From NCBI GenBank assembly GCA_017381715.1, contig JAFOBR010000013.1:12170-76169 (forward strand): 64,000 nucleotides of DNA, in the 5' to 3' direction. The notes under the pieces were generated by a model that made no database searches, was not told where the DNA came from, and worked only from the letters and a program-made list of their open reading frames with translations. Both the position numbers and the translations under genes were made by a program. Position 1 is the first letter of the stretch. Every line of letters begins with the position of its first letter. The DNA comes from Clostridia bacterium (lineage in GTDB: Bacteria; Bacillota; Clostridia; Oscillospirales; CAG-382). Positions 7,355 to 53,736 of the stretch are shown here, piece after piece.

Positions 7355-10246
7355 TTAAATTTGATTTCCGTCAGCGTCGAGCTTGATAAAGTCCTCAGCG
7401 CCGATAGTGTAGGAATTGCCGTCAACTTCAACGGTGGCTGCATTAAGGTCGTAGTTGATTATGAAGGAAATTCCGTTGCTGTAAGTTACCTTAACAACGT
7501 CATATTCGTCATCAAGGAACTGGTGATCAACGATATTCTCAGTCTTAACGTCTGCCAAAGCTTCGTTAAGTTCATTATAGGTTGTAACCATATCGTTAAG
7601 CCAGATGTTGTAACGAACGGAGTAGTAACCGGATACTTCGTACCAAGCGTTAAGTTTCTTAAGCTCGGAAGTGTTTTCCATAGCGAGTACGAAATAGGGG
7701 TTTGCGCCGTTTTCGATAGTTTTAAGTACGGTATAGCGGTAGTCACCTGCAAGGTTGATAGCTTCGCCGGTGTATTCGATATAGCCGTGAAGAACCATTC
7801 CGAGGAAAGGAACGCTGGTTGCGGAGTACTTGTAACCGGAGTCATCAAGAGCGATATTAACGATATCGGTAACATAGGGGAACGCATAAGCATTACCGCC
7901 GCTGATCATTACCTTGCCGTTATCTTCCTTTATCTGAGCAAAAAGCTTGGTGATAAGGGTCTTGTTGTCTTCGCGGTTGTAAGGTTCATCTTCATCAAAG
8001 TCGGAGGAAAGGGATTCGCCCAGTACGCCGACAGAAATGCTGCCTACATTGTAATCCTTGTAGTCATCCCAAGAGTTGGAATAGAACTTGTTCATTACAC
8101 TTGCAGAGATAATACCCATACCGGATCTGTCATATCCCTGGTAAAGTGCGCTGTAATACTGATGTCTTGCATAACGATCGTTAATAGTCTTTGCAAGATC
8201 GTCAGACTGAGAGAAGCCATCGAACCATCTGTCGTTATGAGCATAAACAAAGTCAAAATCGGGATACAGAGTAGCGCCGCTGGACTTTGCATACTCGATA
8301 AGCTTCTTAAAGCCTTCTTCGCCGCCGATAACTTTTTCAACCTTAACGCCATTGGGAACGGTATCACCGATACCGCCGTCCTGCCAGCCCATAAGTCTGA
8401 GCTTAACGTTGGAAATATCTGCGTCTTCGCCGAGAAGTTCAAGCATTTCGATTATCTTCTCAAAGCTTGCAAGAGAGTACATCTTATTAATGGGAACACC
8501 CATGAAGGAAGAAGATGCCTCAAGTGCGCAAAGGGTTTCGACATAGAGAGGAATATCTTTATGGGTTGTATCTTTGTCAATAGCAGTAAGAACGCCCTTA
8601 TTCTTGAGATACTGACGATAAATGTTTGCCATACCGGCAACGGAGGATTCTTCATCATTAAGAAGGAACACTCTGATCTTGTAATCCTTGGTGTACTTAC
8701 GGTCACATTCAACGGTCCAGGAAGAAGAGGAGCCGGCGGAAAGACCTGCATCAAGAGAAATGGTATCGGAAGGACGGGGGTTGATCGTACCGTAGCAAGA
8801 TACGAACATGTGAGTAGCACCGCCGTTTTCGATAGTAAGGTTAACCAGAGATTCACCTTCTTCAACGATTGCGAAGTAACCATTCTTGAGATACTTGGTA
8901 GTTTCTACCACTACCTCATTACCGTCTTCATCATATTCGGTGGTCTTAATCTTCTCTGTATAAGAGTTGTTCTTGGTCTCGATTATACCGAAAACAGGAA
9001 GTCTTACAGCCTGCTTGTTGGAGCCGCTGATTTCGCTGTAGGCATAGTCCTGACCGTAGATCTTGCTGGTATTCTTGAACTGACTGCCCATAATATCAGC
9101 AAAATTGATTATTGTACCGGAACCATCAGCAGAGAAAACGTAACCTTCGTTAGAAACAACGTTACCTGTACCTGCATAAGGCAGAATGCTGATGTTCTTC
9201 AAAGAATAAACGGAAGAGTCGAAACGAACGTTACCCATGTTACAACGGATAGAGAGTCCGTCTGCATCCAGCTTGTATTCCAGAGCGAGTTTGAACTGTG
9301 CGGGAGCTGCGTCCTTGTTTACATATTCAACTTCGTCGTGGTCGATCTGGAGCTGTTCAAGAGAGTAATCGGTATACATCTTCAACCAGCCTTCAAGAGT
9401 CTTAAGCTCCTGAACGGAGATTGCAGGTTCACAAACAGCTATAGGGAACTGTTCGCAGATAGGATACTTTTTCTTGTATTCTTCTTTACTCTTATCGGAA
9501 ATGTGAGGATCGTTTACGTCCTTAATAGTATAGAAGGACTCAAAACGGTTAGCGGGTCTGGTTTCTGTGCAGTTGGTTCTGATCTGCTCAAGCAAAGCCT
9601 GGAATTTTTCAAGCTTAATAACACGAGGAACCATATATGTGTTTTCTGCACGACCAAGCTTATATTCAACACGGATACCGTTTGCGATCTTCTTAACGGT
9701 AATCTGATTGTTTTTCGCAGAATCCTTATAAGAAGTCATTTCGTTTTCGGTGTTGCTGGAGCTCTTATCAACGTACTTTATAATAATCTGAGAATAAAGC
9801 AACTGCTTGATAGAGTCGGTAGAAGCTTGCTTGGAGGGGTTGGTACTTGCACCCGCATTATAGGGGTTGGAGCACCAGTAAGACTGATAGTAATAAATAC
9901 CGTCTGCACCGTATTCGAATTTGCCGTCTACGGGGTCTTTACAGCGGAGAACGATAACTTCACCGGTAAGCTTATCTACATACATTGCGTAAGGAATAGC
10001 TACGGTAGGTTCAAGATAAAGTTCAAGTGCATCAAGAGAGGTGTTACCAAGAATTCTTGATTTTACGCTGGAAAAGCTTACAGACATATATGCGGGACCT
10101 TTAGTATCCCAGATATCAACGTCTTTGCTTTCTTCCTCATCCCCTTCCGCAGCAAATGCGAAAAGACCGGATACGGAAGAAATTACAGGCAGGCAGAGCA
10201 GCAAGCAGAGTGCAAATGCCAGTATTGATTTGAAGAATTTACTCAT
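7355..10246 (-). CDS. Large secreted protein of unknown function, possibly DUF5696-like with a glycoside-hydrolase-like barrel region
   Basis: The protein is 963 aa with signal peptide MSKFFKSILAFALCLLLCLPVISSVSGLFAFA. The C-terminal third (...LRLMGWQDGGIGDTVP...ATLYPDFDFVY...SISVGVLGESL...) alternates beta-strand and helix like a TIM-barrel hydrolase. The family assignment is from memory and is not verified. Confidence 0.75.
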   Translation of the reverse strand: MSKFFKSILAFALCLLLCLPVISSVSGLFAFAAEGDEEESKDVDIWDTKGPAYMSVSFSSVKSRILGNTSLDALELYLEPTVAIPYAMYVDKLTGEVIVLRCKDPVDGKFEYGADGIYYYQSYWCSNPYNAGASTNPSKQASTDSIKQLLYSQIIIKYVDKSSSNTENEMTSYKDSAKNNQITVKKIANGIRVEYKLGRAENTYMVPRVIKLEKFQALLEQIRTNCTETRPANRFESFYTIKDVNDPHISDKSKEEYKKKYPICEQFPIAVCEPAISVQELKTLEGWLKMYTDYSLEQLQIDHDEVEYVNKDAAPAQFKLALEYKLDADGLSIRCNMGNVRFDSSVYSLKNISILPYAGTGNVVSNEGYVFSADGSGTIINFADIMGSQFKNTSKIYGQDYAYSEISGSNKQAVRLPVFGIIETKNNSYTEKIKTTEYDEDGNEVVVETTKYLKNGYFAIVEEGESLVNLTIENGGATHMFVSCYGTINPRPSDTISLDAGLSAGSSSSWTVECDRKYTKDYKIRVFLLNDEESSVAGMANIYRQYLKNKGVLTAIDKDTTHKDIPLYVETLCALEASSSFMGVPINKMYSLASFEKIIEMLELLGEDADISNVKLRLMGWQDGGIGDTVPNGVKVEKVIGGEEGFKKLIEYAKSSGATLYPDFDFVYAHNDRWFDGFSQSDDLAKTINDRYARHQYYSALYQGYDRSGMGIISASVMNKFYSNSWDDYKDYNVGSISVGVLGESLSSDFDEDEPYNREDNKTLITKLFAQIKEDNGKVMISGGNAYAFPYVTDIVNIALDDSGYKYSATSVPFLGMVLHGYIEYTGEAINLAGDYRYTVLKTIENGANPYFVLAMENTSELKKLNAWYEVSGYYSVRYNIWLNDMVTTYNELNEALADVKTENIVDHQFLDDEYDVVKVTYSNGISFIINYDLNAATVEVDGNSYTIGAEDFIKLDADGNQI

Positions 10247-19218: not shown

Positions 19219-22200
19219 CTATTTCTGTTCTGCGAGTTCCTTGTAAGTTTCGTACTTGATAGCAGCCTGTTCCTTTGCCTTTTCGAAGAGTTCTTTAGCT
19301 CTTTCGGGGAACGCCTGAACAAGACGGCTGTATCTGGTCTCGCTGCTGATAAAGTCAATATAATCTGCGGTGGGAGCCTTGGAATCCAATGTGAAGGGAT
19401 TCTTTCCGTCTGCCTTAAGGAGAGGATTGTAACGGAACATCTGCCAGTAGCCTGCGTCAACCGCACGCTTCATTTCGTTCTGGCAGTTAGCCATACCGCC
19501 CTTAACACCATGCATTTCGCAAGGAGCGTAGCCGATGATAAGAGAAGGTCCGGGATAAGCTTCTGCTTCAAGGATAGCCTTGAGAGTCTGATTCTTATCT
19601 GCGCCCATAGCGATCTGTGCAACGTAAACGTAACCGTAAGACATTGCGATAGCTGCAAGGTTCTTCTTGCCGATAGCCTTACCGGCTGCTGCAAACTGAG
19701 CTACCTGACCGATCTGAGAAGCCTTGGAAGCCTGTCCGCCGGTGTTGGAGTATACTTCGGTATCGAATACCATAATGTTTACGTCTTCGCCGGAAGCGAT
19801 AACGTGGTCAAGACCGCCGAAGCCGATATCGTATGCCCAGCCGTCACCACCAAAGATCCATACGGATTTCTTTGCAAGGTAATCCTTGTCTGCGAGAATC
19901 TTCTTGGATGCTTCGCAGCCTGCTGCGGACCATTTTTCAAGAAGCTCTACGAGAGCTGCGGTAGCAGCTTCATTTGCCTTACCGTCGTTAACGGTATTGA
20001 GATAATTATCGATCACTGCCTGATCAGCTTCGTTTTCAGCCTTAAGCTCCTTAACGTAACCGATAAGACGCTCACGAATGGTCTTCTGACCGAGGTAGAT
20101 ACCCAAGCCGTGTTCAGCGTTGTCTTCGAACAAGCTGTTAGCCCAAGCGGGACCGCGGCCGCTGTCTCTGTTTACGGTGTAAGGCGTAGCAGGTGCGGAG
20201 CCGCCCCAGATAGAAGAACATCCGGTAGCGTTGGATATATACATTCTTTCACCGAAGAGCTGGGTAATAAGACGTGCGTAAGAGGTTTCTGCACAGCCTG
20301 CGCAGGATCCGGAGAACTCGAGGAGAGGCTGCTCGAACTGGCTGCCCTTAAGAGTGTTTGCTGCAAAAGGAAGTTCCTTCTTGCTTACCTTATCTACACA
20401 GTAGTTCCAAGCTTCTGCCTGCTCGGACTGGGATTCCTGACTCTTCATAACGAGCGCCTTTTCCTTTGCGGGACAAGCGGAAACGCAGAGAGTACAGCCC
20501 ATACAGTCAAGAGGACTTACAGCCATGGTAAATACGTAGTTTTCACATCCCTTGCCTACCATCTTCTTGGTCTTTACGGAAGCGGGTGCATTTGCAGCCT
20601 CTTCTTCGTTAAGAGCGTAAGGACGGATGGTTGCATGAGGACAAACGAAAGCACACTGGTTACACTGGATACAGTTTTCGGGGATCCATTCGGGTACGTC
20701 TACTGCAACGCCGCGCTTTTCATAAGCTGCAGAACCCTGAGGGAATGTACCGTCTACGTAATCAACGAATGCGCTTACGGGGAGAGAATCGCCGTTCATC
20801 TTACCTACGGGAAGAACAACGCTTTCTACAAACTTAACAACATCGGGTCTGCCGGAAACTGCAGAAGCGGAAGCGGCGGATGCGGAAACTGTCTTCCAGG
20901 ATTCGGGAACTTCGATCTTGACAAGAGCTTCAACACCTGCGTCAATAGCCTTGTAGTTCATTTCAACTACAGCTTCGCCCTTCTTCATATAGGACTTCTT
21001 AGCCATATACTTCATATACTCTACTGCGTTTTCAATAGGCATAATGTTTGCGAGTGCGAAGAAAGCAGCCTGGAGAATGGTATTGGTTCTCTTGCCCATA
21101 CCGATCTCACGAGCCTTATCTATTGCGTTAACGGTGTAGAACTTGATATCGTTATCAGCGATATAACGCTTAACCTCTGCGGGAAGATGCTCTTCCAGCT
21201 CTTCTGCGGACCACTGGCAGTTAAGAAGGAAGGTTCCGCCGGGCTTAACGTCGTTTACGATCTTATAACCCTTGGTAATATAGCTGGGGTTATGGCAGGC
21301 GACGAAGTTTGCCTTTGTAATATAATAAGGAGATTTAATAGGCTTATCACCGAAGCGGAGGTGAGAAATGGTAACACCGCCGGTCTTCTTGGAGTCATAC
21401 TGGAAGTATGCCTGAATGAACTTTTCGGTATGGTCGCCTATAATCTTGATAGAGTTCTTGTTTGCGCCAACGGTACCGTCGCCGCCCAGGCCCCAGAATT
21501 TGCAGGAAATAGTTCCTTCGGGAGCTGTATCGGGGCAAGTCTCTTCGGGAAGAGAGAGACCGGTAACGTCATCTACGATACCGAGAGTAAAGCTGTTCTT
21601 GGGCTCTTCAGCATCAAGATTCTTAAAGGTTGCAAAGATAACGGAAGGAGGAGTATCCTTGCTTCCGAGACCGTATCTACCGCCAACGATAGTGCCGGTA
21701 AAGCCGTTCTGACGGAGAGCTGCCACAACGTCAAGGTAAAGGGGTTCGCCGAGAGAACCGGGTTCCTTGGTGCGGTCAAGCACTGCTATCTTCTTTGCGG
21801 TTGCAGGAATAGCGGAAATAAGATGCTTTGCGGAGAAAGGTCTGTAAAGTCTTACTTTGATAAGACCAACTTTTTCACCCTTTGCGGTAAGGTAATCGAT
21901 AACTTCTTCAGCTACGTCGCATACGGAGCCCATAGCAACGATAACCTTTTCTGCATCGGGAGCGCCGTAATAGTTAAAGAGCTTGTAATCGGTACCGATC
22001 TTTTCGTTTACCTTATTCATATATTCTTCCACTACTGCGGGGAAAGCTTCGTAATAAGAGTTACAAGCTTCTCTGTGCTGGAAGAAGATATCACCGTTTT
22101 CTGCGGAACCGCGGAGAACGGGATGTGCGGGATTGAGAGATCTTGCACGGAAAGCCGCAACAGCGTCTTTATCAAGCATTTCTTCAAGATCCTTGTAATC

Positions 22201-22758
22201 CCATTCTTCAATCTTCTGAATCTCGTGAGAGGTTCTGAAGCCGTCGAAATAGTTAAGAACGGGAACTCTGCCCTTTATAGCGGAAAGATGTGCAACAGCG
22301 GCAAGATCCATAACTTCCTGAGGGTTGGATTCAGCCATCATTGCGAAGCCTGTCTGACGGCAGGCATATACGTCGGAATGGTCACCGAAAATGTTGAGTG
22401 CGTGGGTAGCTACGCAACGTGCGGAGCAGTGGATAACGCAAGGCAACAATTCACCGGCGATCTTATACATATTGGGGATCATGAGAAGCAGACCCTGGGA
22501 AGCAGTGAAAGTGGTAGTAAGAGCACCTGCTGCAAGAGAACCGTGAACGGTACCTGCGGCACCTGCTTCGGACTGCATTTCAACAACCTTAACCTCATCA
22601 CCGAAGACATTCTTCTGACCTGATGCGGACCAAGCGTCTGTGAGTTCAGCCATTACGCTGGAAGGGGTAATGGGATAAATAGCGGCAACTTCGGTAAACG
22701 CATACGCTACGTGAGCGGCAGCTGTATTACCGTCCATTGACCTTTTGTTTCTGGACAT
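19219..22758 (-). CDS. nifJ: Pyruvate:ferredoxin (flavodoxin) oxidoreductase
   Basis: The protein is 1179 aa, with N-terminus ...MDGNTAAAHVAYAFTEVAAIYPITPSS.... It has two ferredoxin-type CxxCxxCxxxCP motifs (CIQCNQCAFVCP, CMGCTLCVSACP) and a TPP-binding GGDGWAYDIG motif. Confidence 0.97.
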   Translation of the reverse strand: MSRNKRSMDGNTAAAHVAYAFTEVAAIYPITPSSVMAELTDAWSASGQKNVFGDEVKVVEMQSEAGAAGTVHGSLAAGALTTTFTASQGLLLMIPNMYKIAGELLPCVIHCSARCVATHALNIFGDHSDVYACRQTGFAMMAESNPQEVMDLAAVAHLSAIKGRVPVLNYFDGFRTSHEIQKIEEWDYKDLEEMLDKDAVAAFRARSLNPAHPVLRGSAENGDIFFQHREACNSYYEAFPAVVEEYMNKVNEKIGTDYKLFNYYGAPDAEKVIVAMGSVCDVAEEVIDYLTAKGEKVGLIKVRLYRPFSAKHLISAIPATAKKIAVLDRTKEPGSLGEPLYLDVVAALRQNGFTGTIVGGRYGLGSKDTPPSVIFATFKNLDAEEPKNSFTLGIVDDVTGLSLPEETCPDTAPEGTISCKFWGLGGDGTVGANKNSIKIIGDHTEKFIQAYFQYDSKKTGGVTISHLRFGDKPIKSPYYITKANFVACHNPSYITKGYKIVNDVKPGGTFLLNCQWSAEELEEHLPAEVKRYIADNDIKFYTVNAIDKAREIGMGKRTNTILQAAFFALANIMPIENAVEYMKYMAKKSYMKKGEAVVEMNYKAIDAGVEALVKIEVPESWKTVSASAASASAVSGRPDVVKFVESVVLPVGKMNGDSLPVSAFVDYVDGTFPQGSAAYEKRGVAVDVPEWIPENCIQCNQCAFVCPHATIRPYALNEEEAANAPASVKTKKMVGKGCENYVFTMAVSPLDCMGCTLCVSACPAKEKALVMKSQESQSEQAEAWNYCVDKVSKKELPFAANTLKGSQFEQPLLEFSGSCAGCAETSYARLITQLFGERMYISNATGCSSIWGGSAPATPYTVNRDSGRGPAWANSLFEDNAEHGLGIYLGQKTIRERLIGYVKELKAENEADQAVIDNYLNTVNDGKANEAATAALVELLEKWSAAGCEASKKILADKDYLAKKSVWIFGGDGWAYDIGFGGLDHVIASGEDVNIMVFDTEVYSNTGGQASKASQIGQVAQFAAAGKAIGKKNLAAIAMSYGYVYVAQIAMGADKNQTLKAILEAEAYPGPSLIIGYAPCEMHGVKGGMANCQNEMKRAVDAGYWQMFRYNPLLKADGKNPFTLDSKAPTADYIDFISSETRYSRLVQAFPERAKELFEKAKEQAAIKYETYKELAEQK

Positions 22759-27596: not shown

Positions 27597-30227
27597 ATGA
27601 ACGGTTACAAAAACTCAATAGACAAAGACCTGGTGGAAATGACACTTATGGGCGATGAAAACGCATACGAAGAGCTGGTAACGCGCCACGAAAGAAGCGT
27701 ACACGGCACGGCGTATAAGATAACGGGAAACAAATACTCAGCGGAGGACGCTTCGCAGGATGCATTTGTTGCCGCTTGGACAAAGCTTGACACCCTTAAA
27801 GAAAGGGAAAAGTTTGGTTCGTGGATCTGTGCTATTGCCAAAAACTGCGCTTTTCGTATTGCCGACCATTACCGCTGTGCCGTTTCCGATATAAGCTTTG
27901 ACGCACTGGAATACGCTTTATATAACAAAAACGAGGACGAGAAATATCAAAACAGCCTTGACCTTGCGTTTATAAACGAGTATGACCAAAGCGAGAAATT
28001 GCGGGATGCGGTTGAAGCTTTAACCGAAAAGATACGCGAAACCGTTAAATTGCATTATTTTGAAGAGTTATCTGTTGCCGAGATCGCCCAAAAACTTTCC
28101 CTACCGGTGGGGACTGTTAAGTGGCGTCTTTCGGAGGGGCGAAAGCAACTCAGAAAGGAATACGGTATAATGGATAAAGAATACAATGAAAACGAAACTA
28201 TCGTTGAACGTGTAATGAGGCAGGTTGAGGCACTTAAACTACTTGCAAAACAAAACGACAAAACCGAATTTCAAAAACAATACAAAAAAGTTCTGGCAGA
28301 CGTAGAAAGTCTTAAGGATTCTAAAGAAAAATCCCACGCACTTGCAGACGTGCTTATGCACGGTGTCTGGTGGATGGAGGGCGAAAAAAGCGAAGAATTG
28401 TACGAACGCATAAAAGCCGAGGCGTTAGCGGGACACAACGATGACGTTATGCAATCCGTGATATCGAGAGAAGCCGGTAAATACAGCGGAAAAGAACGGG
28501 TTGACTATATGATCAACATTCAAGTTCCGTTTTTGGAAGAACACAATTTCCCTCTTTCTCTGGGATACACTTGGTTCTGGGCAGGTTGGTCTTACGCCTG
28601 CGAAAACGAAATCGAAAATGCGATTGTCTGCTTTAACAAGGTTTTGGAGGTCTTAAAGCCTTCCGACGTATATTACGCCAACGCATTGTCAGCTAAAGAA
28701 TGTGAAAAAATCAGAGAGAATCATAGAAACAAGCAAAGAAAACAGTTTGGCGGTGGTGCGACGGGAGAGGTATATAAGCTTATAAACGGCAGACTGCTCT
28801 TCTGGTCCCAGCCGGGATATTCCTTTGGAAACCCCAGCGACGGTAAAAGTATATTCTGGAACGCGGGACGGTGCGACTGCGTGATATACGATGAGAATAT
28901 GCTCCCTGGGGACGTATACGTTTGCTCCGATAAAAAGAGTACACTGGAGTACCGCAAAAACGGCATTACCGTAGAAACAAAGGCGGGGATTTTTGAAAAC
29001 TGCTCTCTTTGGGTTTTTACGGGGGAAAGATACGGGCTCACAAGCTGTGAAACCTACATTTGCCCCGGAGTGGGAATTGTAAAACAACACTCTGTAAGAT
29101 ACGGCACTGAGACAACTTGGGAACTCAGTACGTACGCGCTAAAAGGCGGAAACGGTCTTATACCCTTTGAAAAGGGCAACCGCTGGGAATACACGCCCCT
29201 GCCTACCGATGGACTTGATGTTGAGGCAAACAGCTATTTTGAGGTACTATCCGCCGAAAAGAATACCTTTGTTGTTACGGCGGGTCACACTTATCAGCTT
29301 TTGGGACTCGGTTCCCCCACTACATGGCAAGGCGCCATGAACAGCTTTACACAAGGATATTATGTAAACGACGGACAGCTAAAAGCGAAAATGATCGACG
29401 TTGAGGAGTACATCCGCCTTGCGGAAAAGTATGCAAAAACGAAACGAGAAAAGGTTATAACCGCAGTTTCTGCCGATGTTATGCGAAGAATTCAAAGGTG
29501 TTATCCCTATATAAATCCCGATTACACCGAAAAAGGCAAATGGAACTTTTTCAGCGCACAATCCGTTTCAAAAAGTGCTGACGGAACACTATGTATTTCC
29601 AATTCCCGAAAAGTATCAAACTTCGGCTTCACCTGGAAGGGCAATATGTGGAATATCGGCACAGAGGGATACAAGGTGCTGTACGGCAATTTCCTTTTGG
29701 AGATACAGCAAGCCATAGGCTGTGTTTGGTCCGACGAATGGATACCCGGATACAAAAAGACCTCCCCCTCCCGTGCGCAAAAGGGTGCGAAATATATCCT
29801 TGAAGTTTTGGATGACGAAACCGTTATTACCCCCTGCGGAACCTTTGAAAATTGCCGCCACGTAACATACAAACTTTCCGGCATGGATAAACACGGCGCC
29901 CAGTTCCAAGGCGGTAAAAAGGATATATGGTATGCGCAGGGAATCGGAATAGTGAAATTCCAAACCGATTACTGGTATGACCGTAACCTTTCCTGCATCT
30001 GGGAGCTGAAAGAGTACCGCAAAACGGGAGAAGGTTACTACCCTATCGTTGACGGTGCATACAGAAAATATGCTCCCGACACCATAGGTGACGGCTGGAA
30101 CGCTTCCGTTGAGCACACCTATGATAGCGACGAAAATGAAACTATAATTTTATTTAACGTGCTGGGCACGAGAAACAGAGCGGAATACGAAGCAGATAAT
30201 GACTGCAACGATTCCGATTATGATTGA
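27597..30227 (+). CDS. ECF (sigma-70 family) sigma factor fused to a ~685-aa soluble C-terminal extension
   Basis: Residues 1-190 read as sigma region 2 (...AYEELVTRHERSVHGTAYKITGN...DASQDAFVAAW...FGSWICAIAKNCAFRIADHYR) and region 4 (...LHYFEELSVAEIAQKLSLPVGTVKWRLSEGRKQLRKEY). The remaining residues are a helical, TPR-like stretch plus two related beta-rich modules. I see no hydrophobic TM segment. Confidence 0.85.
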   Translation: MNGYKNSIDKDLVEMTLMGDENAYEELVTRHERSVHGTAYKITGNKYSAEDASQDAFVAAWTKLDTLKEREKFGSWICAIAKNCAFRIADHYRCAVSDISFDALEYALYNKNEDEKYQNSLDLAFINEYDQSEKLRDAVEALTEKIRETVKLHYFEELSVAEIAQKLSLPVGTVKWRLSEGRKQLRKEYGIMDKEYNENETIVERVMRQVEALKLLAKQNDKTEFQKQYKKVLADVESLKDSKEKSHALADVLMHGVWWMEGEKSEELYERIKAEALAGHNDDVMQSVISREAGKYSGKERVDYMINIQVPFLEEHNFPLSLGYTWFWAGWSYACENEIENAIVCFNKVLEVLKPSDVYYANALSAKECEKIRENHRNKQRKQFGGGATGEVYKLINGRLLFWSQPGYSFGNPSDGKSIFWNAGRCDCVIYDENMLPGDVYVCSDKKSTLEYRKNGITVETKAGIFENCSLWVFTGERYGLTSCETYICPGVGIVKQHSVRYGTETTWELSTYALKGGNGLIPFEKGNRWEYTPLPTDGLDVEANSYFEVLSAEKNTFVVTAGHTYQLLGLGSPTTWQGAMNSFTQGYYVNDGQLKAKMIDVEEYIRLAEKYAKTKREKVITAVSADVMRRIQRCYPYINPDYTEKGKWNFFSAQSVSKSADGTLCISNSRKVSNFGFTWKGNMWNIGTEGYKVLYGNFLLEIQQAIGCVWSDEWIPGYKKTSPSRAQKGAKYILEVLDDETVITPCGTFENCRHVTYKLSGMDKHGAQFQGGKKDIWYAQGIGIVKFQTDYWYDRNLSCIWELKEYRKTGEGYYPIVDGAYRKYAPDTIGDGWNASVEHTYDSDENETIILFNVLGTRNRAEYEADNDCNDSDYD

Positions 30228-33277: not shown

Positions 33278-36200
33278 TCAGTCGTTGTCTACACTGTTTT
33301 GCAGTAAATTTTTAAACTTTTCAAGAATTTCCGCAACTGTATCAAGCACATCCTCTTTTTCCGATGGTCTGTAAGCAAAATGAGGCTTACCTCCCAGTGA
33401 AAGAAGCATTCTGCCCCTGTACTTCGGTTCGGATGCGAGAAGAGTGCATGCACGCACATCGATATGTTCGGGAAAAAACGATATAAGACCGCGTTTTTGC
33501 TCAATAAGCTTTATACCGCAAGCACAGGCGCTGTTACGCACAAGCGCTACTCTTACAAGGTTCCACAATGTAGGCGGTATATCACCGAAGCGGTCCAGAA
33601 GTTCATCAAGCAGATCGTCTCTGTCCGCTTCCGATTCGATACAGGCGATCTTCCTGTAAACGTCTATACGCATCTGGGAAGACGGAATATAATCTTCCGG
33701 TATAAATGCGCTTACGGACATATCCACCGTGCAATCGCTCTTTAACATTCCGGGGTTACCCTTAAGTTCTTCAACGGCTTCTTCGAGTATTTTAACGTAC
33801 AGATCGTAACCGATCGCCTCCATCTGTCCGCTTTGCTCGGCCCCCAGCACGTTACCTGCGCCTCTCAGCTCCAGATCTCGCATTGCTATCTTGAATCCGC
33901 TTCCGAATTCAGTGAATTCACGTATAGCGTCAAGACGCTTTTCTGCGATCTCTTTTAAAATACTTCCTGTTCTGTAAGTGAAATATGCATACGCCTTACG
34001 TGCAGAGCGTCCTACTCGACCTCTCAGCTGATGAAGCTGTGAAAGTCCCATGTGGTCGGCGTTTTCTATTACAAGAGTATTTGCATTGGGTACGTCGATA
34101 CCCGTCTCTATAATGGTGGTGCTAACCAAAACATCGATTTCGCCCCGCACCATATTTTCCCATATTTCCCCAAGCTCGTCCTTGCTCATTTTTCCGTGGG
34201 CAACGGCGACCACAGCGTCAGGAAACGCTTCGGAAAGCTTTTTGGCGCAGGAATATATGGTTTCCACCACATTGTGGAGATAGAATACCTGACCGCCTCT
34301 TCGCAGTTCACGGCGTATAGCCTCGTGAACCACGGCATCATCGTGCTCCAAAACAAAGGTCTGTACGGGAATTCGGTCCGAAGGTGCTTCCTCCAATACC
34401 GACATATCTCTTATTCCGGATAACGCCATATTAAGAGTTCTGGGAATGGGAGTTGCGGTAAGGGTAAGCACGTCTATATTTTCGGAAAATTGTTTTAGCT
34501 TCTCTTTGTGGGTAACTCCGAACCGCTGTTCTTCGTCTATAATAAGCAATCCGAGATCCTTAAACTTTATATCGCTTTGAAGTATGCGATGAGTGCCGAC
34601 GACTACGTCGATCTTGCCGATACGCAGATCTTCTACAGTCTGTGCCTGTTCCGCTTTGGTGCGGAAACGTGACATCATCGCCACTTTTACGGGAAATGCG
34701 CGGAAACGGGAAAGCATTGTCTGATAATGCTGCATTGCAAGAATTGTGGTGGGCACCAAAACCGCCACCTGTTTTCCGGAAACTATTGCTTTAAAAGCGG
34801 CGCGCAAAGCAACCTCTGTTTTGCCGAACCCAACGTCGCCGCACAGAAGTCGGTCCATAGGCACGGTACTTTCCATGTCCTTTTTGATATCCTCTGCAGC
34901 TCTGAGCTGGTCATCGGTTTCGTCATACTCGAACATAGCCTCAAACTCTTCCTGCATCTCTTCATCGGGAGGAAAAGCAAAACCTTCTTTAAGCTGTCGG
35001 GCGGCGTAAAGAGCAATAAGCTCTTTCGCAATATCCTTTGCGGCGCTTTTTGCACGGGCTTTGGTGCGTTGCCATTCGGATGTGCCCATTTTGGAAAGCT
35101 TTGTGTTTTCGTTTCCGATATATTTGGAAACCAAATCAAGCTGGTTACAGGGCACGTACAATATATCCGTGCCTGCATAACGTATTTTAATATAATCTTT
35201 TGAAACGCCGTTGGCAGTAAGGTTTGTTATACCTTCAAACCTTCCGATACCGTGGTTTGCATGAACCACAAGATCTCCGAAGGTAAGGTCTGCGTAGGAT
35301 GCGATACGCTCGCTTTTTGTAACCTTTTTTCTTACACGCTCTTTTCGCCGTGCGGAAACATTTTGCAGAGTGTCCGTATCGGTATACAAAACGAAATTGG
35401 CTCTGGGCAGTTCGAATCCGCAAAGAGATTGGTTTCCGTCCAAAGTACCGACACCCGCAAGTCCTTTATGAAGCTGCCCGCTGAAACGGTAACAGCCTAT
35501 ATTCCTGTCATTGAGCGCAGTCAGCATATTGTCAGCGGCGCGCTCGCTCACGGTTAAAACAAGTACGTTACGCTTGAGCTCGACAGAGGATTTCAGGTCG
35601 TCTGCCAAAAGCTCAAGATTAGAAAGATATGAATTCACGGATTTGGTTAAAACCGTGTATTCATCGCGGTAATCGAACATTTTATTGGCACCGGAAAAAT
35701 AGTCCAGAGCCAATGTTTTTTTCGCCAATGAGGACACGAGTGTATCCAAGTCCATATGAGGGAGCTGACTTCCCGCAGGTAAAATTCCGCTTTCCGCAAG
35801 GGATGCAAAGGTCTGCTCGTTTTGCCAACAGAACGCCCCTGCTCTTTCCTTTATACGGGAGGTGTTGACAGCAATTACCGCAAAATCCGAAAGATAATCC
35901 AAAACGGTTGCTTTTTCCTCGTAAACAAAGGATGCATATTTATCAAGAGCGGTAATTCTTATATGATTTTCGCAGTTTTCTTTTTCTTTTATCAGAAGAT
36001 CTCTGAGCTTTTCACTGCCGGTGAATTTTTTTATCTGCTTTCCGATATGGAAAGCTATATTTTCATACGCCAGATTATCGGGCAAAAGCTCGTACACGGG
36101 AAGAATGCTTACGGTTTCGGTGTTTTCGTAACGTCTTTGGGAGGTTATATCAAAAAATCCGATAAGATCGACTTCATCACCAAAAAAATCTATACGGAAC

Positions 36201-36766
36201 GGGTTGGGATACGAGGGAGAAAACACATCCACAATACCGCCGCGTACAGCAAACTGCCCCTCTCCTTCCACCTGCTCGGTGCGCTGATAGCCCAAAAGGG
36301 CAAGCCAGGAGGAAAGCTGTGAAACGGAAATGCTTTCACCGGTACGCACGTGGAGAGTTATATCCTGCAATATTTCGGGAGGAACGGTATATTGCATAAC
36401 AGCATCGGGTACGGTTATTACCGCATCTGCTTTTCCATCCAGAAGTGCGGAAAGTACGCCGATACGCTGTTGCTCGAATTCACGGGAATATCCCTTTACG
36501 TTATCGAAAACGAAATCTCTTGCAGGGAAAAACAAAACGTTTTCCATATAATATTCCAATTCCGAGCGAAGACGCTGAGCTTCTCTCTCATCGGGCATTA
36601 TAATGAGCAGCTTTTTGTTTATTTCCTTTGAAAAAGCCGTGCAGAAAAGGGGGCGGGCAGCGTCGCACACCCCTGTTGCAACACACGGAACCCGTCCCTT
36701 TGAAAAATTTTCGGTAAGCGCCGAAAATTCGGTATCAAGTGAAAATTGTGAAATTACGGTATTCAT
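33278..36766 (-). CDS. mfd: Transcription-repair coupling factor
   Basis: The protein is 1162 aa. It has a UvrB-like N-terminal part, helicase motifs (...LLCGDVGFGKTEVA..., ...LIIDEEQRFGV..., ...QLHQLRGRVGRS...) and sits immediately downstream of pth. Confidence 0.95.
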   Translation of the reverse strand: MNTVISQFSLDTEFSALTENFSKGRVPCVATGVCDAARPLFCTAFSKEINKKLLIIMPDEREAQRLRSELEYYMENVLFFPARDFVFDNVKGYSREFEQQRIGVLSALLDGKADAVITVPDAVMQYTVPPEILQDITLHVRTGESISVSQLSSWLALLGYQRTEQVEGEGQFAVRGGIVDVFSPSYPNPFRIDFFGDEVDLIGFFDITSQRRYENTETVSILPVYELLPDNLAYENIAFHIGKQIKKFTGSEKLRDLLIKEKENCENHIRITALDKYASFVYEEKATVLDYLSDFAVIAVNTSRIKERAGAFCWQNEQTFASLAESGILPAGSQLPHMDLDTLVSSLAKKTLALDYFSGANKMFDYRDEYTVLTKSVNSYLSNLELLADDLKSSVELKRNVLVLTVSERAADNMLTALNDRNIGCYRFSGQLHKGLAGVGTLDGNQSLCGFELPRANFVLYTDTDTLQNVSARRKERVRKKVTKSERIASYADLTFGDLVVHANHGIGRFEGITNLTANGVSKDYIKIRYAGTDILYVPCNQLDLVSKYIGNENTKLSKMGTSEWQRTKARAKSAAKDIAKELIALYAARQLKEGFAFPPDEEMQEEFEAMFEYDETDDQLRAAEDIKKDMESTVPMDRLLCGDVGFGKTEVALRAAFKAIVSGKQVAVLVPTTILAMQHYQTMLSRFRAFPVKVAMMSRFRTKAEQAQTVEDLRIGKIDVVVGTHRILQSDIKFKDLGLLIIDEEQRFGVTHKEKLKQFSENIDVLTLTATPIPRTLNMALSGIRDMSVLEEAPSDRIPVQTFVLEHDDAVVHEAIRRELRRGGQVFYLHNVVETIYSCAKKLSEAFPDAVVAVAHGKMSKDELGEIWENMVRGEIDVLVSTTIIETGIDVPNANTLVIENADHMGLSQLHQLRGRVGRSARKAYAYFTYRTGSILKEIAEKRLDAIREFTEFGSGFKIAMRDLELRGAGNVLGAEQSGQMEAIGYDLYVKILEEAVEELKGNPGMLKSDCTVDMSVSAFIPEDYIPSSQMRIDVYRKIACIESEADRDDLLDELLDRFGDIPPTLWNLVRVALVRNSACACGIKLIEQKRGLISFFPEHIDVRACTLLASEPKYRGRMLLSLGGKPHFAYRPSEKEDVLDTVAEILEKFKNLLQNSVDND

Positions 36767-47074: not shown

Positions 47075-48466
47075 TTGTTTTTGGATATAAATAATATCTC
47101 GCATAACGGCAATATATATTTTGTAGGTATCGGCGGAATTTCTATGTCCTCTCTGGCAGAGATACTGCACAGAAAAGGATATAAAGTAAGCGGTTACGAC
47201 TGTTGCTCCTCCCCTGCTACAGACCATCTTAAAGAGCTTGGTATACCCGTATACCACCAAACGGAAAAAGAACATTTTGACGGCGTAACAGCGGCAATAG
47301 TTACCGCCGCAGTACACGAGGATAACCCTGAGATTATCGAGCTTCGCTCAAGAAACATTCCCTGCTACTCCCGTGCAGAGCTTTTGGGTGCATTGGGAAG
47401 TAAATATGCAAATTCAATTGCGGTGGCGGGGACTCACGGAAAATCCACCACCACAGGTATGCTGAGCGATATTTTTACCACAGCAAAAAATTCCGACCCT
47501 ACCATTCTCGCAGGCGCAATAGTGCCCGAGCTGGGAAGAACCTTCAGACTGGGAACCGACGAAAACTTTATTTACGAAGCTTGTGAATATACCGATTCGT
47601 TTTTGTCCTTTTATCCCCATATTGCCGCAGTTCTTAACCTTGAACTGGACCACACGGATTATTTCCCCGATATAGCGGCTTTGGAAAGATCTTTTTCCAA
47701 ATTCATAAACAATGCGGGAAAAGACGGAATTGCCGTTGTAAATATGGATTCTCTGCACACCATGGAAGCGGTTAAGGGATGCGTGCCCAAAGTAGTTACC
47801 TACTCCCCTTCCGGTAACAAAGAAGCAGATTATTACGTTACAGACCTTGAGTTTGATCACGGCTTTGCAAGATATAAAATTTGGCACAACTGCAAAATGC
47901 TTGCCGAGATATCTTTATCCGTTCCCGGTGTTCACAATGTGGCGGATTCCCTCTGTGCCGCCGTATGTGCGGATTTAAGCGGCATAGAAGCAAACGATAT
48001 TGTTGCCGGTTTAAAGATGTTCAAAGGCGTTTCCAGACGTTTTGAGCTTAAAGGCACGCTTAACGGCGCACCCGTGTTTGATGATTACGCCCACCATCCT
48101 GACGAAATTAAAGCAACTCTTTCTGCCGCAAAGATGATGGAATATGACCGTGTGATCACCGTATTCCAGCCCCACACATATTCAAGATTACACGATCTGT
48201 TTGAAGATTTCGCAAGCTCCTTTAAAAACTCCGATATTACCGTATTTGCAGAGATCTTTTCCGCATCCAGAGAAAAGGATGTTTTCGGTATCTCTTCAAA
48301 GAATCTTGCCGAAAAGGTTTCCGGCTCGGTATACTTCCCTACCTTTGCGGAAATTGAGGAATATTTGCAAAAAGAAGTGCGCAAAGGCGATATTGTTATC
48401 GTTATGGGCGCAGGCGACGTAACGAAGATTAGCAAAGATTTGATAAAAAGCGAAAAAAACAGTTGA
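47075..48466 (+). CDS. murC: UDP-N-acetylmuramate--L-alanine ligase
   Basis: ...IYFVGIGGISMSSLAEIL... and the ATP site ...AVAGTHGKSTTT.... The start is TTG 47075, or more likely TTG 47081, which is 7 nt after AAGAGGTG. An extended -10 TGtTATAAT lies at 47040-47048. Confidence 0.93.
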   Translation: MFLDINNISHNGNIYFVGIGGISMSSLAEILHRKGYKVSGYDCCSSPATDHLKELGIPVYHQTEKEHFDGVTAAIVTAAVHEDNPEIIELRSRNIPCYSRAELLGALGSKYANSIAVAGTHGKSTTTGMLSDIFTTAKNSDPTILAGAIVPELGRTFRLGTDENFIYEACEYTDSFLSFYPHIAAVLNLELDHTDYFPDIAALERSFSKFINNAGKDGIAVVNMDSLHTMEAVKGCVPKVVTYSPSGNKEADYYVTDLEFDHGFARYKIWHNCKMLAEISLSVPGVHNVADSLCAAVCADLSGIEANDIVAGLKMFKGVSRRFELKGTLNGAPVFDDYAHHPDEIKATLSAAKMMEYDRVITVFQPHTYSRLHDLFEDFASSFKNSDITVFAEIFSASREKDVFGISSKNLAEKVSGSVYFPTFAEIEEYLQKEVRKGDIVIVMGAGDVTKISKDLIKSEKNS

Positions 48467-48745: not shown

Positions 48746-48779
48746 AAATCCGACAGAAAACTCTGTCGGATTTTTGTTT
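48746..48779. terminator. Bidirectional terminator (rpmB / anti-sigma-like gene)
   Basis: AAATCCGACAG (48746-48756) pairs with CTGTCGGATTT (48763-48773), then TTGTTT. An A-run lies upstream. Confidence 0.8.
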
Positions 48780-48787
48780 AGGTTGTT

Positions 48788-51574
48788 TTAGCAGGTATAA
48801 TCCAAATTTTTCACCATACTGACAGCTTGGAAATCAAATTCCGAAAGATCGTATTCTATGTTTTCTTTCGGGATTTCTATAAACATATAGTAATGTGTCA
48901 TCCAATACTTCTCTTGCTTATCTCTGTCTTTATCCATATCCCAAACAAAATATAACGTTTGGGGATGATCGTCTTCTCCAACAGTATATACTCCCGTACC
49001 CTTGCAATCAAAGGTAGGTACGTATGATATAAACTTTATGAGATAATTATCTTCAAACCATTCATCTGTGTATTTCGTTATAAACTTTTCATAGTTTTCT
49101 GTGTCGTAGCACATATTATGATAGTCATCGAAAACCAGCCGTTCCGGATCGGTAATAAAGAATCCGTTATTAAAATTCCCTGCGATACCGTGGTTTTCAT
49201 ACACAAGAGGCATTTTTACAACTTCCACACTGTAATCTAATTCTATATTTTCCAGCTTGCCTTTAAGTGAAGGCTCTTTGGAAAGCTTATAACCGTTAGA
49301 TTCGGCTTCTTTCGTTTCCATTGCTCTAACGAAGAAGACATTATGGATAATTTCATTTCCGTCCTCGTCTTTTACGGTATATCTTTCACCTATATCATAA
49401 GGAATATCCTTCTTTGATATCTCTATAAACGCTTTGGAACCATAGGTAAGATCCCAATCGAAGTTCGGATCTCCTTCATCGTATATAAAAAGCATTTTGG
49501 GTTGTTTTCCGTCTTCAAAATGGAATCCTATATGCTTCAGGTTGATTTCCTTTTCGACACCGTGTAAAACAATCAGCCAGTTATCTTCAAACCATGCGTC
49601 GGTATACTTTTTTATCCACTCGTTGTAGGAAGGATCGCCTTTATCGGGTTTCCAAAACTCTTTTACATGTTCACCTATAAGCAATTCTTCCGGCGATAGT
49701 ACTATGCCTCCGTCCCACGGCCACTGTCCCGCTGCATAAAGAGGGTCCAACACAGGAACGGTGATAACGTTTACTTCAAAAGGAATATCAAGAAATTCCA
49801 CATCGCCTTTAATTTCGGGGATATTCGTTTCCGGCTTACTTGTTTCGGGGATTTTTTCGCTTTCCCAACCTAAAATCGTGCTGTCAATAGCGTTTACCTT
49901 TACTCTGTATTCGTTGTCTTCGGTTTTCAACGTTACCAAGTAGACCATTTTTTCGCTATCGAATTTATGGGACACGCTTTGTACTTTTATATCAAGCCCC
50001 TGCTCTGTTCGCAGATACGCAATAGCCGCGTCTCTCGCCGCCAACGCTGTAATATAGTCTTTTTTGTCGATGCTTGTTTCGGGCGACTGCGAAGATTGAC
50101 TTTCATTGTCCGGCGGAATTGAAAGATTTAATTTATATGAAAATATAACGCATTGTTTTCCTTGTTGCAGTACAGATACAGAAACGAGGGCATTTTCAGT
50201 ATCAACAGAGTCTATATTTTCAATTCTCTGGGTGAACATATAATTGTTCGCCAGCGAATATACGATAACCTTATCACTTCCACGCACGTAGATATAATAA
50301 TAGCCGCACCACTCCTGATAATCCGTAACATTTTCGGCAAGAAGCATTTTTTCTCCTATGCCAAACAAAGGTGAAACGTACAAGGAGTACACCGATTTGT
50401 GACTATCGCGAGTTACCTCAAAAAGATCCTGCTGTGTGAATTCATAGTTTTCGGTTACATCAGCGCAGTCGGACAGACGAATGACAACAGATTCGCTGTA
50501 GTCGGTTTCACTATTAAAAGCTGTTTGAAATATAGCGGCATCTTCTCTTGCGGTGAACTTTTTAAATGTTCCCGAAACGAAAAAGCTGTTTCCCGTCATC
50601 AGATCGTAAATTTTCCAACGAGTTGCTGTGCCGTTCATACTCGCGGCAACGCTTCCGAAATAGTATGCATGCAAATAATATCTGCCGTCAGGTGAAAAAA
50701 CGCCGTTTTTACCCGCACAATATTCATCGGTAGGGGACGTTATCTCCGTTTTTGTCCTTACGTCGGTATTGTAAACAAAGATTCGATATCCTTTATCTGT
50801 AGCTTTATATGTGGCGATATTCTTATAATCTGCAGATATTTTAAAGATATTTCCCGAAGGAAGCTCCTTAATTCCGCCTGTTTCCAAATTTGCCTTATAT
50901 AACTTTCCCGCAACTTCCACGGTACACCATTCGTTGCTTGCGCCAAGCTCTACGAGATTAATATCGAAGCAAGTGATACCGTGGCCCAAAACATTTTTGG
51001 AATCAAGTTCAATTATTCGGTTACCAAGACTGAAAATTTCGCATGTTTGGATATCGTAAATTATGTTATGCCCCATTTCCGCTATGACATCCTTGTATTC
51101 GGGCCATTTACATGTAAGCTGGATGTATCTGTCGTTTAATTGATATGCGGCGTATACCCACTCAGGAAAGCTATACGTGTTTTTTTCTGTTGCCGACATT
51201 AATCTGACTGCGCTTTGCTTTTGTGCTATCGTAAGATCGGCATTACCGCTGAGTCCCAGTCCTTTCGCAGCAAACTCGCCCGGAGCATACCAATCCTGCA
51301 ATCCTTCAAAGCAGACAATCTCGTTTGAAAAGCGCAATGTGTCTTCTTTGCCGCGTAGTTTATATATAACTGCGCCTATCGCAAGAAACAGTATAAGGCA
51401 AGCAGCTAATGCCGCAACGTATTTATAATTAAAAATACGTTTTCTTTTTGGCAAAGCTTTGATCATATCTTTTTCCGAAACGCCGGCAAGGATATCGTCT
51501 TTCGGCATCGCAAAGCTTTCGGCTTCTGCGGTATAATATTCTTTTAATGCTTTTTCAATGTCTGTAGCTTTCAT
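48788..51574 (-). CDS. Large single-pass membrane protein (anti-sigma-like position): beta-propeller-like region + PepSY domain + two C-terminal repeats
   Basis: ATG 51574 follows GGAGGA, 1 nt after the sigma stop. The TM helix is YVAALAACLILFLAIGAVIY. TolB-like strings include ...SPDGRYYLHAYY.... The PepSY-like segment is ...ARDAAIAYLRTEQGLDIKVQSVSHKFDSEKMVYLVTLKTEDNEYRVKVNAIDSTILGWE. The duplicated module carries KYTDAWFEDNWLI and KYTDEWFEDNYLI. Confidence 0.8.
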   Translation of the reverse strand: MKATDIEKALKEYYTAEAESFAMPKDDILAGVSEKDMIKALPKRKRIFNYKYVAALAACLILFLAIGAVIYKLRGKEDTLRFSNEIVCFEGLQDWYAPGEFAAKGLGLSGNADLTIAQKQSAVRLMSATEKNTYSFPEWVYAAYQLNDRYIQLTCKWPEYKDVIAEMGHNIIYDIQTCEIFSLGNRIIELDSKNVLGHGITCFDINLVELGASNEWCTVEVAGKLYKANLETGGIKELPSGNIFKISADYKNIATYKATDKGYRIFVYNTDVRTKTEITSPTDEYCAGKNGVFSPDGRYYLHAYYFGSVAASMNGTATRWKIYDLMTGNSFFVSGTFKKFTAREDAAIFQTAFNSETDYSESVVIRLSDCADVTENYEFTQQDLFEVTRDSHKSVYSLYVSPLFGIGEKMLLAENVTDYQEWCGYYYIYVRGSDKVIVYSLANNYMFTQRIENIDSVDTENALVSVSVLQQGKQCVIFSYKLNLSIPPDNESQSSQSPETSIDKKDYITALAARDAAIAYLRTEQGLDIKVQSVSHKFDSEKMVYLVTLKTEDNEYRVKVNAIDSTILGWESEKIPETSKPETNIPEIKGDVEFLDIPFEVNVITVPVLDPLYAAGQWPWDGGIVLSPEELLIGEHVKEFWKPDKGDPSYNEWIKKYTDAWFEDNWLIVLHGVEKEINLKHIGFHFEDGKQPKMLFIYDEGDPNFDWDLTYGSKAFIEISKKDIPYDIGERYTVKDEDGNEIIHNVFFVRAMETKEAESNGYKLSKEPSLKGKLENIELDYSVEVVKMPLVYENHGIAGNFNNGFFITDPERLVFDDYHNMCYDTENYEKFITKYTDEWFEDNYLIKFISYVPTFDCKGTGVYTVGEDDHPQTLYFVWDMDKDRDKQEKYWMTHYYMFIEIPKENIEYDLSEFDFQAVSMVKNLDYTC

Positions 51575-51575
51575 T

Positions 51576-52121
51576 TTACCGTCCTCCTTCACAGTAGTTT
51601 TTAAGCTTTTCCAACGCACGCTGATATTTTTTGCGCACCAATACCGTGTTCTTTTCGATTACGTTTGCTATCTCCGAATGAGAAAGACCTGCGTAAATAC
51701 GAAGCTTTACTATCAGCTTTTCTTCATCGGAAAGAGTGTTCAGCGCATCCCGAAGCATAATTTGTTGAAGCGTTTGGGGCTCAAAAGCACTTTGAGCTTT
51801 TTCTTTTTCCGAAATTTCTTCCAAAGATAAAGTGTGCTTTTTTTCTTTGACCTTGTCTACAGCGCTGTTTCTTGTTACCTTCAATACTCACGCTTTAGGG
51901 TTTGTTCCCTTTTTATAGGTATGTGAAAGGCGGAGGATCCGTATCATCGTATCCTGCAGCACGTCTTCTGCTTCCCCAAAATCTCCCGTTATCTGGTATG
52001 CAACGGAAAGTATCATACGCCCGTATTCATTATAAACACGTTCAAGTGCTTTTTTGTTTCCCGAAGCGATTTCCGTAATGGCAATATCGCAAGGGTCTGC
52101 TAAATTCAAAAACAGGATCAT
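51576..52121 (-). pseudogene. ECF sigma factor interrupted by an in-frame TGA at the conserved Trp codon
   Basis: Track ORFs 51888..52121 (region 2: ...EAEDVLQDTMIRILR...GTNPKA*) and 51576..51884 (...VLKVTRNSAVDKVK...; region 4: ...LSHSEIANVIEKNTVLVRKKYQRALEKL) are in the same frame. Both ends are 0 mod 3, and only TGA 51888-51890 separates them. Confidence 0.8.
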
Positions 52122-52239
52122 ATAAACACCTCACTTTCCGGTTTCATACTATATAACCGAAGATTTTGTTAAAACGTGACATTAAACAGCAAAATTTTTC
52201 CATATTGCAAGAAGAGAATATCCGATATCATATTAACAC

Positions 52240-52282: not shown

Positions 52283-53736
52283 TTAATCATCGGTGTCCCG
52301 CTCATAGCATATTATCTCGCCGGTATCTGCATTCACCTCGGCTTCGTATTCGTATTTGCCGGAAATGAATTCTATCTCGTATTTCCATACGTTATCATCG
52401 TGATCAAGCTCAATATTCAAACGGGAAATATCATCTTCCGCAAGTCCCGCACGGTCGAGCACCTTTTTAAGTGCTTGTTCTTTTGTAATAAGTCCGTTTT
52501 CTTCGGAATTACCGCTTGAATTATCTTCATAATGATAATATCTGTCCGATTCCACGGAGAGAACTTCGCGCGTCTTTGCGTTAACCTCGAATTCGTATTC
52601 GATACCCTTATAAGAAACCTCGGCTTCGCATATGAGCACGCCGTCATCGTATTGGAACTTATATTCAAACCGTTCCACTCCTGTCTTTCTGGGCAGTATG
52701 CGGATATAATATCCTCGACCTCTTTTGCCGAAACGTATTCTCCTACAGCGCCACCGATCAAAACATCTCTGTTCTTCTTTTCACAGGAGATGATGTTGCC
52801 GTTTACGGCATTTACTTCTATCTCGTATCTAACACCTTCGACAACAAATTCAACCTCATAAATCATCATACCGTCATCGTGTTCGAACTCTACCTTTATG
52901 CTTCCGTATACCATATCTTCGGTAACCTTTGCATACTCAAGGGCGGCAGCTTTGGATTTTTCAACACCTATATACGCCTTATCGCTGGCAGAACCTACAA
53001 ATTCTCCCTTAAGTTCTGCGCCTATCTCTTGCAACAGCAGGGACAGCTCATTTATTCCCAGTTTAGCCAGAGATTCGGGATCGTATTTTGCGTTATTTGC
53101 GCAGAGAGAAAGGATAAGCTGTGCTTTGCCCAAGGAAATGCCCAGTTTATCTGCAAGATATGCGGAATCGGTATCGTTTTTATCTATCTGCAAAGCGATA
53201 ACCGCACCCTCTGCATTCTCGGTGGTTATAAGACCGCTGATAATAGCATTAAGCTTTTCACGCAAGGCGGCATTTTTATCCGCATTTCCGTTATCAACGC
53301 TTACCAGCACCGAATTTGCCAGTTCATCAATATATCCGCCGGTTATCATAGATCCGATAAGGGCATTGAGAGCAACCTCTATCTTTGTTCCCGTAAGGTC
53401 CATATTGCCAATGATTTTTTGACCGTCCTCATTCAGCGCCTTTATATCTACCACAACGTCTTTTCTGTTTAATTTAATTTCAATACTGGGGTTAACATCA
53501 ATGGATACCACGCTGGCAACAGCGTTGTTCCCCATATATGCCAGCACGCCTGCAAAAACACCGAACAGCATAACGAATGCTGCCGCGGCGGCAACGATAG
53601 CTATGGGTAATCTTCTTTTTTGTTTCACGAGCATCGCCGTTCCTTTCCCGCTTACGCTGTCAGAAACAACGGTTTCGAGAATATCGGGGGTGATAGCTGT
53701 AAAAGCATTTTTAATTTTGTTTTCTGTTTGTTTCAT
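52283..53736 (-). pseudogene. Anti-sigma-like membrane protein with three PepSY domains, split by a 1-nt frameshift
   Basis: ORF 52417..53736 gives sensible protein up to ...AKEVEDIISAYCPE and then 87 codons of implausible read-on. ORF 52283..52678, offset by one frame, continues with (V)ERFEYKFQYDDGVLICEAEVSYKGIEYEFEVNAKT... and a third PepSY domain. The junction is at the A-run ccagAAAgacagg (52681-52693). Confidence 0.8.

Follow-up and report, generated by a model that had tools for sequence, protein, structure and literature searches.

A TGA codon at the conserved region 2 tryptophan of an ECF sigma factor gene in gut Clostridia: a genuine and probably recent nonsense allele

The 64 kb stretch of DNA analysed here (referred to as the window) carries on its minus strand a gene for an ECF sigma factor, sigma B, whose reading frame is interrupted by a single TGA at a codon where nearly all of its relatives have tryptophan. 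The question raised by this locus is what the stop represents: a sequencing error, a fresh pseudogene, or a sigma factor kept at very low dosage by readthrough, the three options left by the initial annotation of this DNA. The features needed for the argument are as follows.

51576..52121, minus strand: ECF sigma factor gene (sigma B), 181 codons, interrupted at codon 78 (from translation, Pfam, NCBIfam and orthologues)
51888..51890, minus strand: in-frame TGA, codon 78 (TCA on the plus strand); the next base is G
51888..52121, minus strand: N-terminal ORF, 77 aa plus stop, covering the sigma-2 helices up to the loop that precedes the Trp helix
51576..51884, minus strand: C-terminal ORF from TTG (codon 80), 102 aa, covering the remaining sigma-2, the linker and sigma-4
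52127..52134, minus strand: Shine-Dalgarno sequence GTGAGGTG, 5 nt before the ATG (read from the sequence and conserved in the orthologue alignment)
52151..52180, minus strand: candidate ECF-type promoter GTCAC-N16-CGGTTATAT, proposed from the orthologue alignment
48788..51574, minus strand: putative cognate anti-sigma factor gene, 928 aa, co-oriented downstream and intact
48746..48773, minus strand: terminator-like hairpin after the anti-sigma gene, taken as the operon end

The sigma B gene begins with an ATG at 52121 and ends with a TAA at 51578-51576, and translation across the stop gives ...HTYKKGTNPKA*VLKVTRNSAVDKVK... in one frame. When tryptophan is restored at codon 78, the protein matches Pfam Sigma70_r2 at residues 30–95, straight across the stop (E 6.9e-16), and Sigma70_r4/r4_2 at residues 122–174, and it scores 89.9 bits against the NCBIfam model TIGR02937 (sigma70-ECF, cut-off 42.9). 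The nearest solved structures are those of SigL, SigE, SigH, SigK and SigW, and full-length orthologues of 181 aa display 76–97% protein identity. Sigma B has the domain layout of the ECF family, that is sigma-2 and sigma-4 only within ~170–200 aa and neither region 3 nor region 1.1, but in the window lineage it does not have the intact frame of that family, owing to the TGA at codon 78. Judged by these domains and its orthologues, sigma B is a member by descent of the ECF (group IV) branch of the sigma-70 family, interrupted in the window lineage.

Codon 78 is the sole tryptophan codon of the sigma B gene. In an alignment with 26 homologues the corresponding column holds tryptophan in 22, tyrosine in two and phenylalanine in two, and over the 102 aligned sigma factors from the collected loci it holds 90 tryptophans, two tyrosines, one phenylalanine, one leucine and eight stops; the stops are confined to the eight copies of the window lineage (0 of the 94 other aligned sigmas). 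Structure alignments pair the codon with the tryptophan of Mycobacterium tuberculosis SigL (ARAWLFTVARN), with that of SigE and with that of 6dxo. The initial annotation had joined the two ORFs into one frame with TGA between them, assigned the gene to the ECF sigma factors, and proposed that the stop replaced a near-invariant region 2 tryptophan by a single TGG to TGA change. All of this stands: the reading is exact, with the stop at codon 78 of 181; the assignment is borne out by both Pfam regions, by TIGR02937 and by the solved ECF relatives; profile and structure alignments agree on the position; and the orthologues all have TGG.

Any TGG to TGA mutation has the property that misreading of the stop as tryptophan restores the wild type, and W78 to TGA is the one nonsense hit in sigma B for which this is so. 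It represents one of the 81 single-base nonsense paths in the gene, or 1–4% of nonsense hits depending on transition bias. This prior carries little weight, since the case was picked post hoc for that very coincidence, and we regard the coincidence as modest.

Six public contigs, from ERZ28018794, SRR12529364, ERZ28653950 (SAMN15829839), ERZ27256673 and ERZ28654981 (SAMN15829869), carry adjacent gene calls for identical fragments of 77 and 102 aa, and hence the same TGA; they represent at least four samples and include MEGAHIT-style, scaffold and Logan assemblies. Recurrence in at least four samples and with several assemblers indicates that the TGA is a genuine allele rather than an assembly error. 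The contigs are 99.95–100% identical to the window over 2–10 kb, differing from it by at most three clustered sites per 10 kb and by one synonymous SNP in sigma B (CGT to CGC at window position 51699, in contig L004), the only SNP among the sigma genes of the TGA alleles; this level of identity points to one very young, near-clonal lineage. Contigs L004 and L005 have a different gene end upstream of window position 52289, in place of the PepSY anti-sigma gene found there in the window, and the TGA allele thus exists in two structural haplotypes (the window with L001–L003, and L004 with L005). The upstream gene end common to these two contigs, which come from different studies (L004 1–58 and L005 1–87), reads ...MRIDTCKVLIKLI*. 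An allele present in several samples and in two upstream contexts is not strongly deleterious and has spread. Sample names, together with the sister genomes named 'Goat_Cecum' and 'Water_buffalos_Cecum', suggest ruminant hosts.

A scan of genome contigs returned only sister species (88–89% DNA identity, with TGG) and hence no further TGA carriers, and it returned neither the genome of the window itself nor GCA_054298315.1. An exact-pattern scan of metagenome contigs for AAAGCGTGRGTATTGAAGGTAAC gave no match, though the JGI contig L008 contains AAAGCGTGRGTATTGAAGGTAAC; that collection evidently holds no such short contigs, and the scan is therefore uninformative on allele frequency.

Codon 78 is TGG in every orthologue (L006, L007, L008, L009, L010, L011 and L093). 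These include GCA_054298315.1 (L006), two sequences at 92% DNA identity (L008 and L009) and sister species at 88–89% (L010 and L011), and TGG is retained throughout the more distant orthologues, at 88–97% DNA identity. The nearest allele, L007, which carries the lineage markers T225 and G251 like the window, has TGG. The 5' end of the sigma gene is replaced in L093. In L007 (positions 718–945) homology to sigma B ends at codon 89 and is followed by the 3' end of an ApbE-like gene on the opposite strand, with the motif YHNIIDPDT; this break may be either a second, independent disruption or a chimeric contig of 945 nt.

Pairwise pN/pS among intact sigma B orthologues is 0.13–0.22 (about 0.15), the pattern of purifying selection, from which it follows that the gene, where intact, is both functional and under constraint. 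Besides the nonsense change, the window branch has acquired one synonymous and three amino-acid changes (K84R, I91V and S161L). The surplus of the latter falls short of significance (P of about 0.12, a binomial estimate on few events), and the changes, which are compatible with relaxed constraint, lean in that direction. Position 161 is serine or alanine in 22 of 24 homologues, leucine in one homologue and threonine in the paralogue. Among the TGA alleles themselves, a comparison for purifying selection 3' of the stop has one SNP to work with, which is synonymous, and thus no statistical power.

TGA is used as an ordinary stop codon elsewhere in the window. The ORFs 1769-2218, 2215-3204, 47075-48466 and 33278-36766, identified with Pfam as SpoVAC, SpoVAD, MurC and Mfd/TRCF, all end with TGA, and three sister species share the position of the murC TGA, their sequences diverging directly after it. 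A genome-wide reading of TGA as tryptophan is excluded by these four gene ends, in agreement with the initial annotation, which had argued against global recoding from spoVAC, spoVAD and murC. A greedy set of 51 non-overlapping window ORFs ends with TAA in 41 cases, TGA in eight and TAG in two. Searching for genes split by a single stop yields many adjacent long segments, of which only sigma B lies within this set of 51; no other gene of the set is split in this manner. ARAGORN found no tRNA genes in the window. Several large window genes have very long ORFs, of up to 1037 aa, on their opposite strand (e.g. 7361-10060 on the plus strand against 7355-10246 on the minus strand, and 19510-22623 plus against 19219-22758 minus); these antisense ORFs are probably an effect of codon composition and not overlapping genes.

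The operon around the stop is otherwise in good order. Both blocks of GTCAC-N16-CGGTTATAT are kept in all orthologues, including L011, in which the spacer has diverged, making this element a candidate autoregulated ECF promoter. The gene for the 928-aa protein begins with an ATG 1 nt after the sigma B stop codon and is predicted to encode one transmembrane segment near residues 52–72 and a large ectodomain. The protein has no family or anti-sigma domain match in Pfam or NCBIfam, but is likely to be an anti-sigma factor on account of its position and of its first 60 residues, which travel together with the sigma gene. It contains a PepSY-like segment at residues 505–568 and two copies of a 'KYTDxWFEDN' domain at residues 646–725 and 822–905, a domain also present in L006.

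The surrounding locus differs considerably between relatives. In the window two adjoining sigma/anti-sigma pairs are flanked by an acetyltransferase gene and by rpmB/murC, and the first of these pairs is absent from L006 and L007. In L006 the sigma gene and the first 60 anti-sigma codons are 96.5% identical to the window at the DNA level (window 51399-52206 against L006 5916-6723), compared to 89–90% in the flanks. The remainder of the L006 anti-sigma gene (652 aa, L006 6548-8506) is chimeric: its RsgI_M/PepSY ectodomain shares 47% identity with the neighbouring anti-sigma A, and its C-terminal 'YTDEWFE' domain is of the anti-sigma B type, a pattern suggestive of sensor domains being swapped as modules while the sigma-binding head stays constant. 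Some relatives have a given cassette, others lack it or have a chimeric version, and on this comparative evidence the locus is a hot spot of recombination and turnover for sigma/anti-sigma cassettes.

The 64 kb window encodes at least three ECF-type sigma factors. The third, at 27597-30227 on the plus strand, is an 876-aa protein with an N-terminal r2 + r4_2 module and a C-terminal extension of ~690 aa that has a weak DUF3108-like match, and the TGA stop of its gene overlaps the start of the next gene; a sigma fusion of 554 aa is also encoded in L006. Upstream of sigma B, the window differs from the otherwise identical L001–L003 at three private sites within 52658-52690 (C to A, one T lost from TTTT, and T to G), which frameshift the RsgI_M/PepSY anti-sigma gene (52283-53736, minus strand), so that a protein of 484 aa, intact in L001–L003, is represented by ORFs of 439 and 131 aa in the window. 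At the first two sites L010 has the same sequence as L001; its alignment stops short of the third. The cluster may have arisen through misassembly at this spot or through a mutation private to the window.

We propose, with a probability of about 0.75, that the stop is a recent TGG to TGA nonsense polymorphism, a null or severely hypomorphic allele that is ordinary and not an evolved device. A real and recent G to A transition would have struck the sole tryptophan codon of an accessory ECF sigma gene in one near-clonal lineage of an uncultured, spore-forming Clostridia bacterium of the ruminant hindgut. Most translation would then end after residue 77, giving a product with the first part of sigma-2 but without the Trp helix, the remainder of region 2 or any of sigma-4. 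Such a product should be unable to direct transcription, because these parts are missing, and the allele would accordingly be a null or severe hypomorph and the gene a young pseudogene in which further damage has not yet accumulated. As a matter of course tRNA-Trp reads UGA as a near-cognate codon at a basal level, and it may thereby occasionally regenerate the exact wild-type sigma factor; such a leak would not be an evolved device, since it follows automatically from any TGG to TGA change. The loss of sigma B may have been tolerated through redundancy, given the many ECF sigma/anti-sigma pairs and the fast cassette turnover at the locus.

The comparative data agree with this proposal: the change disables a conserved domain of a gene that is intact and constrained in its orthologues (pN/pS about 0.15), and the fresh pseudogene option of the initial annotation fits all of the data, the TGA clade being very shallow, every orthologue having TGG and the stop not being recurrent. 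Against plain decay, no damage is seen in the 102 codons that follow the stop, in the promoter-like element and the Shine-Dalgarno sequence, or in the gene for the 928-aa anti-sigma, although an intact remainder of the operon is expected for so young an allele, and a maintained hypomorph would look the same. Also against it are the spread of the allele over several samples and two upstream contexts, the non-significance of the amino-acid surplus on the window branch, the low prior of 1–4% for the one nonsense hit whose leak restores the wild type, and the G that follows the stop, a context linked to weaker termination in E. coli reporters (PMC11126739).

The alternative that the window should read TGG, its TGA having arisen in sequencing or assembly, can draw on the cluster of private differences at 52658-52690, only 800 bp away, which includes a 1-nt homopolymer deletion. 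However the identical TGA stands on six contigs, built by three kinds of assembly from four or more samples, and a one-base artefact recurring in this way is so implausible that the error option of the initial annotation is effectively refuted. That annotation had also held that TGG in relatives would indicate an assembly error; relatives do have TGG, but they are different species or alleles, and the rule fails. Decoding of the TGA by a dedicated mechanism, either as selenocysteine or as tryptophan through genome-wide or partial recoding, has a practically negligible probability. Selenoproteins are frequent in Clostridia. Reading of UGA is possible in bacteria for variants of tRNA-Trp whose anticodon stem has 4 bp (PMC13092985). 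Yet TGA ends murC, at a site conserved in the sister species, as well as spoVAC, spoVAD and mfd, and no other real window gene is split by TGA. Selenocysteine at codon 78 was considered and rejected: the 91 nt around and after the stop form no stimulatory or SECIS-like RNA structure beyond chance (z = -0.45 against shuffles), and the column is only ever tryptophan, tyrosine or phenylalanine in the 26 homologues, never cysteine or selenocysteine.

A more substantial alternative, though still an unlikely one, is that the TGA has been kept by selection as a dosage or condition switch, with readthrough of UGA as tryptophan, which depends on growth phase, pH and temperature, providing a little wild-type sigma and so damping or gating the positive autoregulation of an ECF sigma factor. 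Readthrough would restore the exact wild-type residue from a nonsense type that is rare a priori; the rest of the operon, including the conserved promoter-like element, is intact; and several samples and both structural haplotypes carry the allele. In E. coli TGA is mostly replaced by tryptophan, a G at +4 lowers termination, and temperature and nutrients alter readthrough (PMC11126739), while a TGA reporter showed 6% readthrough in wild-type B. subtilis (Karow et al. 1998, as cited in PMC7918605). Two signs of programmed readthrough, conservation of the stop in diverged orthologues and a stimulatory structure, are nevertheless missing at sigma B, where the stop is found only in contigs of ≥99.95% identity, with TGG in every orthologue including the nearest allele, where the z-score of -0.45 argues against a structure, and where the G at +4 is the only favourable feature of the context. 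Divergence among the TGA alleles is too small to reveal purifying selection after the stop, and the rarity of the mutation weighs little in a case chosen post hoc for it. The low-dosage option of the initial annotation thus gains no positive support, the stop being unconserved beyond one lineage and no stimulatory structure being present. Were the leak selected after all, it would be of wider importance, as an example from nature of a transcription factor whose dose is set by readthrough of a stop codon. The more specific proposal of a selected translational attenuator, in which raised misreading of UGA as tryptophan (under stress, at low pH or in slow growth) would ignite the sigma feedback loop, we consider improbable; if true, it would mean that a stochastic or condition-gated response is encoded by a single stop codon. 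Very improbable, too, is a two-piece sigma factor, for which ribosomes would stop at the TGA and start anew at the TTG 3 nt further on, the 77-aa and 102-aa pieces reassembling on RNA polymerase. The TTG is in frame, gene callers predict both pieces, and in the SigL alignment the break falls at the junction of the loop and the Trp helix and not in the middle of a helix; a natural two-subunit sigma factor does exist in B. subtilis (SigO-RsoA). But the TTG at codon 80 has no suitably spaced Shine-Dalgarno sequence, the near-invariant tryptophan is lost and the cut lies within sigma-2, whereas the known two-subunit sigma is divided between domains, and the arrangement occurs in no relative.

On the reading of a recent nonsense polymorphism, the two short ORFs are best annotated jointly as one interrupted ECF sigma gene, either a pseudogene or a hypomorph. 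More generally, a premature stop in a metagenome-assembled genome can be a true allele of the population rather than an assembly error.

Several known systems invite comparison with sigma B. Nonsense alleles of rpoS occur in laboratory and natural E. coli, where this alternative sigma factor is repeatedly inactivated or attenuated and is polymorphic within the species. The two cases are alike in that premature stops inactivate or attenuate an alternative sigma gene and are polymorphic, but RpoS is a group 2 and sigma B an ECF factor, the stops are amber and TGA respectively, and a fitness trade-off is documented for rpoS only. The B. subtilis pair SigO-RsoA is a natural two-subunit sigma factor, and resembles the interrupted sigma B in having sigma-2-like and sigma-4-like functions on two polypeptides; its split, however, is conserved and lies between domains, whereas the break in sigma B lies inside sigma-2, removes the tryptophan and is found in one lineage only.

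Another parallel is the leaky reading of UGA in B. subtilis and E. coli. In an E. coli mScarlet reporter library, premature TGA codons gave ~0.5% full-length product on average at 37 °C and several percent at some sites, the residue inserted being mostly tryptophan and a G after the stop weakening termination (PMC11126739), and the 6% reported for B. subtilis was obtained with a catA86-TGA reporter in a prfB+ background (Karow et al. 1998, as cited in PMC7918605). The codon and the expected residue are the same in sigma B, and its +4 G matches the leakier E. coli contexts. However, those values are reporter measurements, and the RF2 and tRNA-Trp of the uncultured bacterium that carries sigma B may have other properties.

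Comparable, too, are the in-frame stops described by Belinky et al. (2021, PMC7918605), which are widespread in bacterial genes and show a mean dN/dS of 0.66 around in-frame TGA. As in those cases, sigma B has a single stop in an otherwise intact and conserved gene, restricted to a shallow lineage whose relatives have a sense codon, and likewise the stop may possibly have only lowered expression; nothing essential differs. The stop in sigma B is thus one more in-frame stop polymorphism, here in an ECF sigma factor of uncultured gut Clostridia.
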